From IMG/VR virus record IMGVR_UViG_2939127364_000001: a stretch of 64,000 nucleotides of DNA. One strand, written 5' to 3'. Shown in pieces: positions 15,254 to 20,324 of this stretch. The stretch's first letter is position 1; every line of letters begins with the position of its first letter. A program made the translations under genes and the position numbers. Source of the stretch: a virus (Duplodnaviria > Heunggongvirae > Uroviricota > Caudoviricetes). Below the pieces are notes generated by a model that worked only from the letters and a program-made list of their open reading frames with translations, searched no databases and was not told the DNA's origin.

Positions 15254-15685
15254 TCAACGGGGAGTAATAAAGCGTTCGGAGCCTAATCGCTCCAATTCAA
15301 CAATGGCCATCTTCGACGCCTGAACGATCATGTCTCGGCGATGCGAAAAGGCGGCGACAGCATGTTTGTATATGTCTGCGATGTGCCGTGCTTCATCCAA
15401 CTTCTGCCGTTTAGACAGATACTGTGGGTTTGTTTTAACCTTAGCGTCCAGTACAGACTCGTTGAACTTAATGCCGTTCATACTCAAGTTCTTACGCTCT
15501 GTGTCGTATAGCTTTGCTTCAACAGCTTCAAGGTTAAGTTTTGCCTCTGCGACATCTCGATCTGCCTGCGCTAGTTTTGACCCATACTCCATTAAAAGCC
15601 GTGGCTGTTTACGCCATACTTCCTCAAGGTTGTCGCGGTCGAACTCCAGATCGGCCATGATTTTAGAAAAAATATCAGTGTTCAC
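15254..15685 (-). CDS. Hypothetical coiled-coil protein (possible recombination mediator)
   Basis: 143 aa, predicted helical; located next to SSB-like and RecA genes. Confidence 0.3.
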   Translation of the reverse strand: MNTDIFSKIMADLEFDRDNLEEVWRKQPRLLMEYGSKLAQADRDVAEAKLNLEAVEAKLYDTERKNLSMNGIKFNESVLDAKVKTNPQYLSKRQKLDEARHIADIYKHAVAAFSHRRDMIVQASKMAIVELERLGSERFITPR

Positions 15686-15892
15686 TCTAATAGGTTCCTA
15701 CTTATAAAATCTGTATCAATTATATCAAACAGAGAACGGGTTTATGGCGTCATGTCAACTTTGTTCAGGGGAAGATATTGAGATCACCGAAGATAATTAG
15801 TTGTCTTATTTTGGTAAGCTGTGCTGACCATCTTTAGGTCACATACATGAGATGGATGGGGTGTGGCATGAGCGGATGAAATTCAGTCGCCG

Positions 15893-15921
15893 TTGACAGA
15901 TGTCAACACTGTGAATAGAAT
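15893..15921 (+). promoter_or_regulatory. Sigma70-like promoter with palindromic -35 (TTGACAGATGTCAA) driving the HicA-like gene
   Basis: TTGACA (15893-15898), 17-nt spacer, TAGAAT (15916-15921), then GGAGG RBS and ATG at 15939. Confidence 0.6.
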
Positions 15922-15938
15922 ACTATTATCGGAGGCGA

Positions 15939-16163
15939 ATGAAGCAACATCCGAATAAGCATATTCAAGCAGCCATTGACTATGCATTAAGTAAAGGCTG
16001 GATCTGGGTAGCAGCTGGTGGTGCTGCACATTGTTTTTGCAGACTGCGATGCGGTAATCCAGAAGGTGAACACAAAACTCACCAAATGAGCGTATGGTCG
16101 ACTCCGGGTAATCCCGAAAACCAAGCCAAACAGATCAAACGAATGGTTGATCGTTGTAAATGA
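15939..16163 (+). CDS. HicA-like toxin candidate
   Basis: 74 aa; ALSKGWIWVAAGGAAHCF resembles the HicA core (G-W..V...G..H.F) as recalled; basic small protein followed by putative antitoxin. Confidence 0.35.
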   Translation: MKQHPNKHIQAAIDYALSKGWIWVAAGGAAHCFCRLRCGNPEGEHKTHQMSVWSTPGNPENQAKQIKRMVDRCK

Positions 16164-16223
16164 TTTCAAGGCGGCATTAGCCGCCTTTTGCAGAAACTGT
16201 CCAACTATCTTCAAAGGAAAACT

Positions 16224-16787
16224 ATGGCGCTTTATAACTTCACTCTGACGCTCTCAGGCGTATCGTATGAGACGGAAGGACTGGAAGACGCGCTGTACCA
16301 AAACGGCTGTGACGATGCGCTAATTTGCGCATATGGAAACTCCGTCTATGTAGAATTTGACCGCGAAGCACAATCACTTGATGCAGCTATCGCATCTGCG
16401 GTCGACAATATTGAATCAGCCGGTATCGGTGCAATTGTTGAATCCGTCGACTCGGCTCTTGTGGGCTTAAGCGATATCGCGGAACTGACAGACCTGTCTC
16501 GCCAGGCTGTGGCGTTGCTCAAAGACGGTAAGCGCGGAAGCGGCGACTTCCCTTGCCCTGTACAACGCATAAAAGGCCAGTCGCCTCTGTGGGATTGGGC
16601 TGATGTGGCTGAATGGCTCATGGATAACGGACGACTTAAAGAGGGCGATCAGATTGTCCAAAATGCCCGAACTTTGAGTAAATGGAATCTGGCGCTTCGA
16701 AACAGCGTCTCGAAAGATTTCAACGAAATAGAGCAAATTGCTGAGAAACTGATTAAACGCCGCAAGGATATTGCGAAATGCGCATAA
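16224..16787 (+). CDS. HicB-like antitoxin candidate with HTH domain
   Basis: Start at ATG 16224 after RBS AAAGGAAAA; N-terminus MALYNFTLTLSG resembles HicB N-terminus as recalled; LSDIAELTDLSRQAVALLKDGKRG HTH-like segment. Confidence 0.35.
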   Translation: MALYNFTLTLSGVSYETEGLEDALYQNGCDDALICAYGNSVYVEFDREAQSLDAAIASAVDNIESAGIGAIVESVDSALVGLSDIAELTDLSRQAVALLKDGKRGSGDFPCPVQRIKGQSPLWDWADVAEWLMDNGRLKEGDQIVQNARTLSKWNLALRNSVSKDFNEIEQIAEKLIKRRKDIAKCA

Positions 16788-16790
16788 TGA

Positions 16791-16820
16791 AACCCGCCAA
16801 CTGGCGGGTTTTCTTTATTA
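16791..16820. terminator. Bidirectional hairpin terminator between HicB-like gene and dnaE
   Basis: AACCCGCC-AACT-GGCGGGTT followed by TTCTTTATT on plus strand. Confidence 0.6.
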
Positions 16821-19800
16821 CTTATTTATCGTCTCCGCGATATCAGCCAGAATGGCCTCCAGTCGCTCTCCTTCTTCCGGTCGGAAGTACAGGATATTCG
16901 GGTTAAATCCGTAGAAGACGGTTGCATCAAGCTCTGGGAAGTACTCCTTACGACCAATCAGATCTGATGGTTTACTCTTATTGTTAAATAGTGCGGTTGA
17001 ACGACTACCACACGTCAAAATGTAGGTTGGTCGTACAAGATTAATTTCTTCCCGCATAAAGTCTGTGAACTGGCCTATCTCGTCTTTGGTATAGTCTTTC
17101 TCTTTGTCCTTAACCTTCTTACAAACACCCGTGACATAAAGATCGCCCATGCGCAGATCTCCAACTGTCAGTAGTTTTGCCTTAAAGTCGTCGTATCCGT
17201 TCTCCATGAAGTAGCCGGTACGAGCGTCATTGCCGTTCGCATTGTCCAGAATGATCATGATTTTGGGTTTAATACCAATAGTCGGGCGTATCAACTCCTC
17301 ACCCAAGCCCATTTCAGCCGCCATACGTGTCATGAGTACGTTGATTTCGGCAGAACGCTTAGGATTCATTTCGAACGGACGTGATGCTTTAACAGCGTCA
17401 ATGATGAGATTGCCCATCAGCTCAGCCTGGTCGCGCAGTCGTTCAGGATCAGTTGCTGGCAGACTGCCTGGCTCAATTGACGCAAAAGCCCCTACTTTAT
17501 GAAGCGACTCGCGTACACGACTGTTACATGCACGCTTCTCGACCGCTTCATCGAATTGTGCCACTGACTCGAATTTGCCACCAACTTTCTCACGCGCACG
17601 CATAATTGCCTGACAACCATTTTCAGAACAGCCTTTCACAGCAGAGAATGGCGCATACAGTGCCTGACTGCCGTCTTCGAGTGTGCGGATCTCAATTCGG
17701 TTAGATGACACATTAACGTCTGGTGGCAATACGCGAATGCCATAGGTCAGCGCATCCTTCACCAGCCCCTGATGCTTATCCTCGCCCAGAATGGTGAGCG
17801 CAGCTGCGAAGAACTCAGCAGGGTAGTGCGTCTTTAGCCACATAGACTGATAACTGATTAAAGAATAAGCAACGGAGTGTGATTTATTGAAGGCATATCC
17901 ACCGAACTTCTCAAAGGCGTCCCATATTTCTTGGGCTTTTTCCTTACTGAGACCTTCTTGTTCAGAGACGATCTCCACGTAGTCTATGCCGTCACTAATA
18001 GCCTCGCTGTAGCTTCTACGCTTACCGTCTGAGCAATCCAGTTTTGCGTGTTTGTGAACCTCTACAGTACCTCCATTTTTGAGTGACAGTGTCACCCAGC
18101 CTGCTTGTGCTCGTTCTACAAAATCGCTGCCGATCGCTTTCATCTTATCCATGTTCTTTTTACCGATAGCGGAACGCAGAGCGTCTGCTTCGGCCATAGA
18201 GAACCCGGCAAGTACTCGGGAACTTTGCATGATTTGTTCCTGATAGAGCAAAACACCATTAGTCTCCCGGGTGACTTCCTCAAGACGCGGATGAATTGAA
18301 TGTGGAGCCATGAAGCCTTTGGCCACGGAGACATAGTCGTCCAACATGCCGGATTGGATCGGGCCAGGTCGGAAGAGCGCGGTCGTGGCGACAACGGTTT
18401 TAAAGCTCATTGGCTCAATGCCACCGCCCAGATCTTTAAGCAGCTTGCGCATGGGGCCGGACTCCAGCTGGAATACGCCCTGCGTGTACCCTGCAGCGAA
18501 CCCATCCAGAACCTTACGATCGTCCAGTGGAATAGCATCGAGATTGATGTCTTCCCCGGTACTCTCTTTGATGTAGCGTTTCGCGCTATCCAGCAGATCG
18601 AGCGTTGCCAGACCGAGAACGTCCAGCTTAATCAGCCCCATCGCCTCGCAGTAACGTTTATCGAACGCAATACAGCGAGCGTTGCCACGCAGCTCGACGG
18701 GCGTGCGCTCTACCAGTGGAACGCCAGCGACGATCATCCCCGCAGCGTGACGGCCAAAACCACGCATCAGGCTTTGTAGCTTACACGCCGCTTTGAACGC
18801 TTCCGGGTTTTTCGTGGCGTATTTGTCCAGGCTGGCCAGTTGCTCGCGCAGCTCTTCCAGAGACAGGCTATCGTCTTCCAGATTCTTGAACTCTTTGGAT
18901 ACCGCCATATCCGCAGCGTCGACACCGTAAATACGCGCAGTGTCTCGCAGCGCAGAAGCGGCGCCCAGATAGGTGAAGTTTGGAATACCGGCAACGTAAT
19001 CTTCGCCATAGCGTTCATTCAGATACTCGATCACCTCATGACGACGTGCCTGGCTGAAGTCCAGATCCGCATCCGGTAAGTCAAGACGTTCAGGGTTGAT
19101 GAAACGCTCAAACAGAAGACCGTGACGGATAGGATCGACGTTGGTTATGCCTATGCACCACGCCACCAGAGAACCGGCAGAGGAACCACGACCTGGCCCG
19201 ACAGGAATGCCAGTTTCACGGCTGTGATTCATCAGGTCGCGCACCATCAGGAAGTAACCACAGAAGCCCAGGCGAGTCAGCGTGTCCATTTCGTACTTAA
19301 GTCGCTCAACATAAACCCTGTTCTCAGAAGCCGGTGGTGTGTATCCAAACTCTTTTGTGGTAAGACGTTTACGCAGCCCTGCAACAGCCAGTTTCATCAG
19401 CGTTGCAGGTTCGTCGTCTGCCATCTTGGGCAGTGCTGGTGGCAATTCATGCCAGCGCCATGTACAGGCTTCGATAATGGAGTCCTGCGTTGTTGAGGCC
19501 ATTGCAGCTGTTACCGGCACATCCATGCGAACGGAGAAGGCTTTAAGCGCCTCAAGGAGATGGCGGCGACCATTGACGGCGTTATCTCGCTGGTGGGGTA
19601 TACGCAGACGATGCGGCTGGTCGATTTTTATGTTGTTCGTAACCATGTGCGCAATGTCTTTAATGTCTGCATCGTCGGTCGATTCGTAATAAGCGGGATA
19701 GAACGCTACTGGCTCTATTTTCAGTGCGCTGGCTACTTTCATCGCTCGGACGTTAATCTGGTCGTAGAATGGGGTAGGGTGCGGATAAACCACGCTATAG

Positions 19801-20324
19801 AAGTTGTCTTTCCCGCCCGCTGTAATCAGTGAGCTTATGATTTTTGCAAAATCGTTGCGTTGGAACACGCTACCGATGTCGGAAGTGAGCAGGATGATGT
19901 TGCCTTTGGCATATGTAGAAACCAACTGTTCGAGCGAGAGACGCGGTACAAAGTAGAACTGTTCTCGTGTGTTGGCCACCGTCATTAGTTCGCAGATGTC
20001 GCGATATCCTTGCTCATTTTTAATTAGAGCGGTAAACGAGTAGTTACGTCCCCGCTCTAATGATTCCATACATCTCATAGATTCTTTAGCAAGTTTAGCC
20101 CGGTGCTCGTATGTGGGATCATCAACGATATTTAGTTTCACACCACAAATAACCGCCATGTCGTCACCAGCGGCACGTTGTAGTGGAATAACACTCGCAA
20201 TATTCATGCTATCTGCTGAAATTACAGCGGTGTAGCCAGCTTCTCTGGCAATCTTCACCGCGTTTTCTGCTTTTAGAGCCGACTCCCCAAGTGAGAAGTC
20301 AGTTCGAACCATCAGTGCTTTCAT
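16818..20324 (-). CDS. dnaE: DNA polymerase III alpha-type (DnaE family) replicative polymerase
   Basis: 1168 aa; N-terminal PHP-like region; [48 protein letters not shown] matches the conserved DnaE palm motif. Confidence 0.85.
   Translation of the reverse strand: [1168 protein letters not shown]

Follow-up and report, generated by a model that had tools for sequence, protein, structure and literature searches.

A PDC-M06 gene pair under a conserved palindromic operator: a candidate self-repressed, toxin-antitoxin-like cassette of SSU5-type phage-plasmids

The viral DNA analyzed here (Caudoviricetes; IMG/VR record IMGVR_UViG_2939127364_000001), a stretch of 64,000 nucleotides referred to below as the window, carries a compact two-gene operon. 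Gene A (15939..16163, + strand) encodes a basic protein of 74 amino acids (isoelectric point, pI, 9.5), and gene B (16224..16787, + strand) encodes an acidic protein of 187 amino acids (pI 4.5). We propose, with a probability of roughly 0.55, that the pair is an autonomous, self-repressed toxin-antitoxin-like cassette in an SSU5-type phage-plasmid backbone. The pair had already been catalogued as the defence candidate PDC-M06 and labelled HicAB in one phage record. The present analysis adds that the HicAB label fails family tests, and it describes the domain architecture of B, a probable metal site and conserved residues in A, the exact operator and its conservation, an asymmetry in the decay of the two genes, and a link to the SSU5/pMT1-type plasmid backbone.

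The operon is preceded by a sigma-70 promoter (15893..15921, + strand) composed of TTGACA (15893-15898), a 17-nt spacer, and TAGAAT (15916-15921), which agrees with the consensus at 11 of 12 positions and was the top-scoring site of a 2-kb scan. An earlier reading made from the sequence alone (the sequence-only reading) had placed the -35 element inside a palindrome and suggested autoregulation. The palindrome TTGACAGATGTCAA is indeed present and is longer than first described, extending to the perfect 16-bp GTTGACAGATGTCAAC (15892..15907, unstranded), of the form GTTGAC-AGAT-GTCAAC, whose left arm overlaps the -35 hexamer. Exact GTTGAC-N4-GTCAAC occurs once in the 64-kb window, at this position; a scan of the window for additional copies, as a test of B as a wider phage regulator, returned only 2-mismatch sites at chance level.

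Conservation of the operator was examined in two comparative samples, one of 80 loci from 80 species fetched with B as the query and one of 54 viral contigs fetched with A as the query. GTTGAC-N4-GTCAAC was exact in 72 of the 80 species loci and within two mismatches in 3 more. Its arms carry 1.8-2.0 bits per position and its spacer about 0 bits, with 43 different spacers recorded. The right arm, which lies outside the -35 hexamer, exceeds the -10 hexamer (TAnnnT, 1.0-1.7 bits) in conservation; the -10 hexamer is itself conserved among species at an unchanged spacing of 17 nt. Conserved arms around a free spacer strongly support autoregulation, and the pair is very likely autoregulated through the palindrome, as the sequence-only reading had suggested. 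One viral contig bears on which protein reads it. At this locus (L141, 3001-3524; IMG/VR contig 3300031991_000103), B consists of an 85-amino acid ferredoxin-like domain alone, without a helix-turn-helix (HTH), and the region upstream lacks the GTTGAC-N4-GTCAAC operator; A is present, and a terminator-like hairpin still lies between A and B. Together, the near-invariant arms and the absence of the operator beside an HTH-less B provide strong indirect evidence that the HTH of B reads the palindrome and represses the promoter, and we infer that B, rather than a host factor, is the reader. Enterobacter pulveris carries tandem operators, TTGACATCCGTCAA and TTGACAGGCGTCAA, 22 nt apart and upstream of A (L046, ~2650-2700).

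The two genes travel together. The same pair is seen again in 80 species of bacteria and in 54 viral contigs, far beyond chance. In 73 of the 80 species, A immediately precedes B, and each of the 54 A-anchored viral loci has a B gene after A, truncated at one of them. In Raoultella ornithinolytica, A and B form a natural in-frame fusion (L078, 2668-3564) in which the stop codon of A is replaced (...HHQKDLAMALYNFTL...). This fusion, the N-domain-only B of L141, and the opposite charges of the two proteins lend indirect support to a partnership between A and B.

The pair also belongs to a recognizable plasmid backbone. At the cassette, Escherichia phage Cyrano (OV696614) matches the window with 98.7% identity, and in its record the genes are labelled 'HicA toxin protein' (A) and 'putative antitoxin HicB' (B); Cyrano is plasmid pLF82, an SSU5-type phage-plasmid (PMC9928086). 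Over 25 kb, the window is 99.1% identical to the Escherichia coli IncFIB plasmid pA320_p0, in which PGAP names the products 'hypothetical protein' (A) and 'DNA-binding protein' (B). SSU5 itself encodes B at 68% identity, labelled 'AlpA-like'. In PLSDB, 259 plasmids carry the cassette: 80 from Escherichia, 78 from Enterobacter, 63 from Yersinia (Y. pestis KIM10+ among them), and the remainder from other sources. Of 5,426 complete E. coli genomes, 109 contain it, in each case on a plasmid (~106-116 kb) and never in the chromosome. We conclude that the pair is part of the SSU5/pMT1-type plasmid backbone.

Both genes are matched by PADLOC models: A by six PDC-M06A models (best 1e-18) and B by PDC-M06B (1.5e-32), with the genes adjacent in the order A>>B. 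PDC-M06 denotes cassette CAS_00046 (FAM_01986>>FAM_01364, 497 occurrences) and is one of 145 phage defence candidates drawn from genes that lie inside BREX, DISARM, and type I restriction-modification loci (Payne et al., bioRxiv 10.1101/2024.01.29.577857). The window pair belongs to the same family, given that both models match with the same order and adjacency. PDC-M06 is a name for the gene pair, given in its source without fold, mechanism, or regulation, and its source loci are embedded in BREX, DISARM, or restriction-modification systems, whereas the copy in the window resides on a phage-plasmid backbone. Neither PDC-M06 nor the protein accession led to a functional study when the literature was searched. 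The sequence-only reading had allowed that the pair could be a new variant or an unrelated two-gene module, and this hedge was well placed.

That reading had also seen a HicA-like motif in A and a HicB-like N-terminus in B, and family searches do not sustain either claim. Protein A had no Pfam or NCBIfam match at E<=10, and the HicA family PF07927 matched neither A nor any of 159 relatives, comprising 30 close ones and 129 distant ones that represent the 537 clusters of the A family. Searches of the PDB with A, as a single sequence and as a profile, gave no meaningful match and no HicA chain, and a Foldseek search of the A model against the PDB gave nothing at E<1 and did not recover HicA. When a profile of A (A3) was aligned using hhalign with an E. 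coli-type HicA profile, which was narrow (67-98% identity), a probability of 57% was obtained over just 17 columns, and the N-terminal HPNK helix of A was paired with the C-terminal helix of HicA, a wrong register. This match, being short and out of register, was rejected as evidence of homology. For B, there was likewise no Pfam or NCBIfam match at E<=10; the HicB families gave no match among B and 30 of its relatives, hhalign against an E. coli HicB sequence returned a probability of 0.2%, and PDB sequence searches with B, single and profile, gave no meaningful match. At the profile level, the HicAB assignment is not supported, and a lack of HicA and HicB profile matches is an outcome that the sequence-only reading itself had named as counting against it.

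Protein A is a member of a large family of its own. Besides PDC-M06A, it matches phrog_5923 (PHROGs, function unknown); a word-indexed search found 32 close clusters of relatives, all unnamed, and an exhaustive profile search extended the family to 537 clusters at 50% identity. Sub-threshold matches to RuBisCO_small recurred for A and were treated as noise. The AlphaFold2 (AF2) model of A has a pLDDT of 86 and the topology alpha-beta-beta-(short helix)-beta-alpha. Among the 129 family representatives, the best conserved positions include H4 (125 sequences), K7 (113), W21 (125), H31 (122), C38 (125), T55 (123), P56 (128), H62 (101), and C73 (122). Position 48 is Cys in 96 and His in 26 of these sequences, and 66 of them have a His just past the end of the alignment with the window protein. 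The exchange of Cys and His at position 48, as for a metal ligand, points to a structural metal site, to which C38, H45/H48, and C73 probably contribute in the window protein and C38, C48, C73, and H75 probably contribute in the wider family. Residue H31 lies at the junction of the beta1-beta2 loop and beta2, after G27. In HicA, the catalytic His opens beta2 behind a loop that contains a Gly, and H31 may occupy a comparable site. HicA has a dsRBD-like alpha1-beta1-beta2-beta3-alpha2 fold; a HicA-like fold (alpha-beta3-alpha) is plausible for the model of A but marginal, and a function as an RNase, suggested by this predicted fold and by the conserved His and Lys residues, is possible but rather unlikely in our estimate.

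One conserved residue of A is altered in the window. Codon 62 (16122-16124) reads CAA, giving Gln62, where relatives have His (CAT), and His62 was found in all 15 near-identical loci fetched. Residue 62 is the sole protein difference between A and its best E. coli match, NZ_OZ121086.1 (99.9%), and the base change in this codon is most likely the one nucleotide by which the two differ over 941 nt. The change could be an attenuating mutation of a putative toxin or a sequencing error. The longer proteins of the A family (125-183 amino acids) were examined for informative domain fusions, and none were found; by eye, the added stretches seem to reflect N-termini called too far upstream. In several lineages, A begins with an unusually weak or non-canonical codon. 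In the Enterobacter lineage (Enterobacter/Kluyvera phage-plasmids; L002, position 8001; L008, L012, and L013), the start is annotated as CTG, and a TTG in the same frame, two codons earlier and 5 nt past a GGAG, looks like a better start; in Pseudoalteromonas (L006, position 8001), A is annotated from ATA.

Protein B matches phrog_2620 ('excisionase and transcriptional regulator') in addition to PDC-M06B, and its relatives form 273 clusters that are named 'DNA-binding protein', 'HTH transcriptional regulator', or 'AlpA family'. Its AF2 model (pLDDT 87.7) has three parts. Residues 1-78 (16224..16457, + strand; pI 4.05) are predicted to adopt a ferredoxin-like beta-alpha-beta-beta-alpha-beta fold (AF2 residues 2-75), for which the top fold matches are the ligand- or metal-sensing HMA, ACT, and Lrp/AsnC RAM domains. 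Residues 79-135 (16458..16628, + strand) form a winged HTH of the AlpA/excisionase type, with helices at 82-89 and 93-100, a strand at 122-124, and a helix at 125-134; this region shares its fold with the AlpA-family excisionase structure 8C3T at 25% identity. The HTH that the sequence-only reading had assigned to the second protein is accordingly recovered in the prediction. Phage_AlpA (PF05930) was matched at sub-threshold level only, in 7 of 30 B relatives (best E = 0.025), and sub-threshold matches of B to CagE_TrbE_VirB were treated as noise. The third part, residues 140-187 (16641..16784, + strand), is a predicted helical hairpin of helices 143-162 and 166-186. From the model, we propose that residues 1-78 constitute the domain that binds and neutralizes A and that residues 79-135 read the operator; the C-terminal hairpin is a possible dimerization element. 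This hairpin is absent from the 148-amino acid B variants of L134-L140, and the operator is still present in L135, so the hairpin appears dispensable in some lineages.

The two genes decay asymmetrically. Among the 80 species of the B-anchored sample, both genes are intact in 64, A is lost or broken with B intact in 14, both are decayed in 2, and A is intact with B broken in 0. The 14 losses of A consist of 5 clean deletions and 9 frameshifts or truncations, and four of the five clean deletions retain the promoter and the operator. Repeated loss of A beside an intact B, with the reverse seen in 0 of 80, argues that B is not the harmful partner, and since B is 2.5 times as long as A, the pattern does not look neutral, although a sample chosen through B is biased against broken B genes. 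The A-anchored set contains a nonsense codon in A at one locus (L132). A test for faster evolution of the B N-domain after loss of A, measured as its excess divergence over the HTH, showed a weak trend (0.081 versus 0.049, one-sided p = 0.06).

Between the genes lies a hairpin that the sequence-only reading had missed (16168..16189, + strand; AAGGCGGC-atta-GCCGCCTT), with an 8-bp GC-rich stem and a TTTT run and a folding energy of -15.8 kcal/mol (z = -3.6). It is probably a partial intrinsic terminator or a 3' stabilizer. In lineages whose A-B gap measures 48-84 nt, a GC-rich stem-loop follows straight after the stop codon of A; the sequences differ, and several have a T-run. In lineages such as Klebsiella and Scandinavium, the gap is 3-35 nt and the hairpin is absent. 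Its restriction to long-gap lineages indicates a lineage-specific tuning element rather than a core part of the system. RNA-seq of an LF82 lysogen placed CYRAN_51 (A) at 30x and CYRAN_50 (B) at 14x over the prophage background (PMC9928086, Table 1), and both are among the genes expressed independently of the lytic programme (PMC9928086). The resulting A:B mRNA ratio of ~2:1 fits partial termination at the intergenic hairpin.

Taken as a toxin-antitoxin-like cassette, the pair would work as follows. A would be a harmful effector, most likely a nuclease or an RNA-targeting protein, and the acidic ferredoxin-like N-domain of B would bind and neutralize it. The AlpA-type winged HTH of B, probably as a dimer, would bind GTTGAC-N4-GTCAAC over the -35 element and repress the operon, and the A-B hairpin would trim read-through into B. 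The pair is expressed in the plasmid state, and its likely benefit would be plasmid addiction, exclusion of competing phages, or both. Features shared with type II toxin-antitoxin systems in general are two small, adjacent, co-directional genes with one promoter and one predicted DNA-binding product, a palindromic operator at their own promoter (at the level of sequence), and the gene order and charge pattern (A against the strongly acidic N-domain of B). We suggest more tentatively, and with less confidence than in the cassette itself, that A represents an undescribed family of metal-stabilized toxins with a HicA-like fold (537 clusters, no Pfam family, and no solved relative) and B a new antitoxin architecture, in which a ferredoxin-like neutralizing domain is joined to an AlpA-type winged HTH reading GTTGAC-N4-GTCAAC, the two together serving addiction or defence as a module of the backbone, both in SSU5-type phage-plasmids and in those Yersinia pestis pMT1 plasmids that have these genes.

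Several observations weigh against a toxin-antitoxin-like cassette. Neither A nor B has a sequence-level tie to a known toxin or antitoxin family, and the fold match of A to HicA is marginal. For a toxin-first operon, a hairpin that leaves B with less mRNA than A (A:B 2:1) is an odd design. In SSU5-type elements, the syntenic position of the pair is fixed amid genes for replication and recombination, which could reflect a role in the phage's own biology. The loss counts derive from a B-anchored sample, which is biased against broken B genes. Finally, in viral contig L107 (3222-3300; IMG/VR contig 3300013741_000046), the only locus with A intact and B broken, a deletion of ~80 bp relative to L106 removes the ribosome-binding site and the first 16 codons of B. 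An intact A at such a locus is unexpected if A is lethal alone; the contig may be misassembled here, or the loss may be tolerated.

Four other explanations were weighed. Anti-phage defence or superinfection exclusion might be the main role, the pair acting as a PDC-M06 abortive infection system in which infection frees or activates A and B otherwise restrains it. This account, which we consider somewhat unlikely, overlaps the proposed cassette in mechanism and differs only in the selected function. It draws on the matches to both PADLOC models, on the derivation of PDC candidates from cassettes within BREX, DISARM, and type I restriction-modification loci, on the expression of the pair as a lysogeny-phase 'moron' in Cyrano, and on the frequent carriage of defence systems by phage-plasmids. 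The PDC systems are, however, presented in their source paper as candidates, and the pair is a fixed element of the SSU5-type backbone, not variable hotspot cargo. Slightly less probable again is a non-toxic regulatory module, in which B would be an autoregulated AlpA-like factor with a ferredoxin-like (ACT/RAM-like) sensor and A a small metal-binding co-regulator or effector. The HMA, ACT, and Lrp/AsnC RAM matches of the B N-domain fit such a sensor, 14 species retain an intact B where A is lost or broken, A is tolerated without B in L107, A mRNA exceeds B mRNA, and no homology to any toxin was found. Lrp/AsnC and NikR-type regulators similarly join a small DNA-binding domain to a beta-alpha-beta-beta-alpha-beta domain; in B, the two domains come in the opposite order, the HTH is of another class, and sequence similarity is absent. 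In this comparison, protein A would be the likely 'ligand' of B. Against a regulatory module, the single operator in the 64-kb window suggests that B controls no genes beyond its own operon, the cassette travels through unrelated contexts as a lone pair of genes, repeated independent loss of the shorter gene is unexpected for a harmless cofactor, and the HTH-less B of L141 keeps A and the N-domain together.

A genuine but highly diverged HicAB system, composed of a HicA mRNA interferase and a HicB antitoxin, is improbable. The Cyrano authors annotated the pair in this way, and there is a resemblance in outline: a small gene, toxin-first by analogy, precedes that of a DNA-binding partner, a palindromic operator sits on the promoter of the pair, A is a small basic protein with a predicted alpha-beta3-alpha fold and a conserved His that the model places near the start of beta2, and its acidic partner has two domains, one of them DNA-binding. 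Yet compared with HicAB (PF07927; PDB 6HPB, 5YRZ, 4P78, and 6G26), there is no profile-level similarity, the 159 family members yielded no HicA profile match, and the hhalign pairing was out of register. Protein A carries an HPNK motif near its N-terminus and a Cys/His site, probably for zinc, and B has an AlpA/MerR-type winged HTH and an additional C-terminal helical hairpin. To our knowledge, canonical HicA has neither the Cys/His site nor the HPNK motif. HicB proteins carry a DNA-binding domain of the ribbon-helix-helix or Xre-HTH type; that of B is of neither class, and its N-domain is not the partial RNase H-like fold of the HicB N-terminus that caps HicA. The least credible alternative, which we regard as very improbable, makes B an excisionase or recombination directionality factor with A as an accessory. 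It rests on the label of phrog_2620 and on the resemblance of the B winged HTH to the AlpA-family excisionase structure, a likeness to AlpA/excisionase regulators (PF05930; 8C3T) that spans residues ~79-135 and is reflected in the names given to B by PGAP and the SSU5 annotators ('AlpA family' or 'AlpA-like'). B differs from these regulators in its added 78-amino acid N-terminal ferredoxin-like domain and C-terminal helical hairpin and in its obligate pairing with A. The host element replicates as a plasmid, an integrase lies near the pair in one (L006) of the two chromosomal contexts listed and not in the other (L007), and the site is a single palindromic self-operator on the promoter of the pair, not an array of recombination sites on att arms.

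If A is toxic and B neutralizes it, the pair would constitute a new toxin-antitoxin family, with a toxin that shares at most a fold with HicA and an antitoxin built of parts not previously seen together, and would supply a first mechanism for a PADLOC defence candidate. The pair is widespread in Enterobacterales and beyond, and the phage-plasmids that carry it occur in E. coli, Shigella, Enterobacter, and Yersinia pestis, pMT1-type plasmids included; it could explain the persistence of these phage-plasmids or their exclusion of other phages. Should A not be toxic, what is left is a well-conserved, self-repressed regulator pair of modest interest. With the operator, promoter, and domain boundaries now defined, the system can be tested directly with few constructs.

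The remaining parts of the operon were read directly from the window. A GGAGG ribosome-binding site precedes gene A (15931..15935, + strand), and GGAGG is found at the equivalent position in most homologous loci. After B comes an intrinsic terminator (16789..16820, unstranded) with a 10-bp GC-rich stem (16789-16812; -16.9 kcal/mol, z = -6.0) and a T-run, which folds on both strands and is common to B and the convergent gene for the DNA polymerase III (Pol III) alpha subunit. The promoter, the 74-amino acid basic open reading frame, and the terminator were all found where the sequence-only reading had put them, and its picture of a self-standing operon of two genes, bounded by a strong promoter and a terminator, holds; the second open reading frame exists too, with 187 amino acids instead of the 188 reported. 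An Rfam scan of 15500-17000 gave nothing above the gathering score, and there is hence no sign in this interval of an RNA antitoxin (type I or type III) or of a known leader.

The + strand operon sits within a - strand block that encodes a 5'-3' exonuclease, a gp32-like single-stranded DNA-binding protein, a UvsY-like protein, and the convergent Pol III alpha, and its base composition does not mark it as foreign relative to its surroundings. Outside phage-plasmids, the pair is also found in Sodalis and Pseudoalteromonas chromosomes, in the former between a LysR-type regulator gene and ssb/uvrA and in the latter adjoining an IS110 transposase and an integrase. The Klebsiella/Raoultella/Scandinavium group includes 17 species in which B is followed by a GNAT acetyltransferase gene (Acetyltransf_3, E ~1e-29) that starts ~10-90 nt past the B stop on the same strand (~3574-4140; L051, L055, L059, L060, L062, L069-L072, L074-L076, and others). 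Outside those species, the third gene is unrelated or absent, and it has no PADLOC match; given this variability between lineages and the lack of a PADLOC match, it was not counted as part of the system.

Further differences among related elements were observed around the cassette. Cyrano has an insertion of ~820 bp between B and Pol III alpha in which no gene is annotated (L001, 7089-7936), and pA320_p0 has one of similar size that encodes a cold-shock protein annotated as cspG (L005, 4484-4699). The window (~16788-16817) lacks an insertion of the Cyrano type, and the terminator of B abuts the stop codon of dnaE. Pol III alpha is a single open reading frame of 1168 amino acids in the window (16818-20324) and is split into parts of 787 and 389 amino acids in Enterobacter hormaechei phage-plasmids (L002, 2548-4890 and 10053-14305), with an HNH/NUMOD4 homing-endonuclease gene between them. 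The RecA of the Enterobacter hormaechei phage-plasmids contains an intein with a LAGLIDADG domain.

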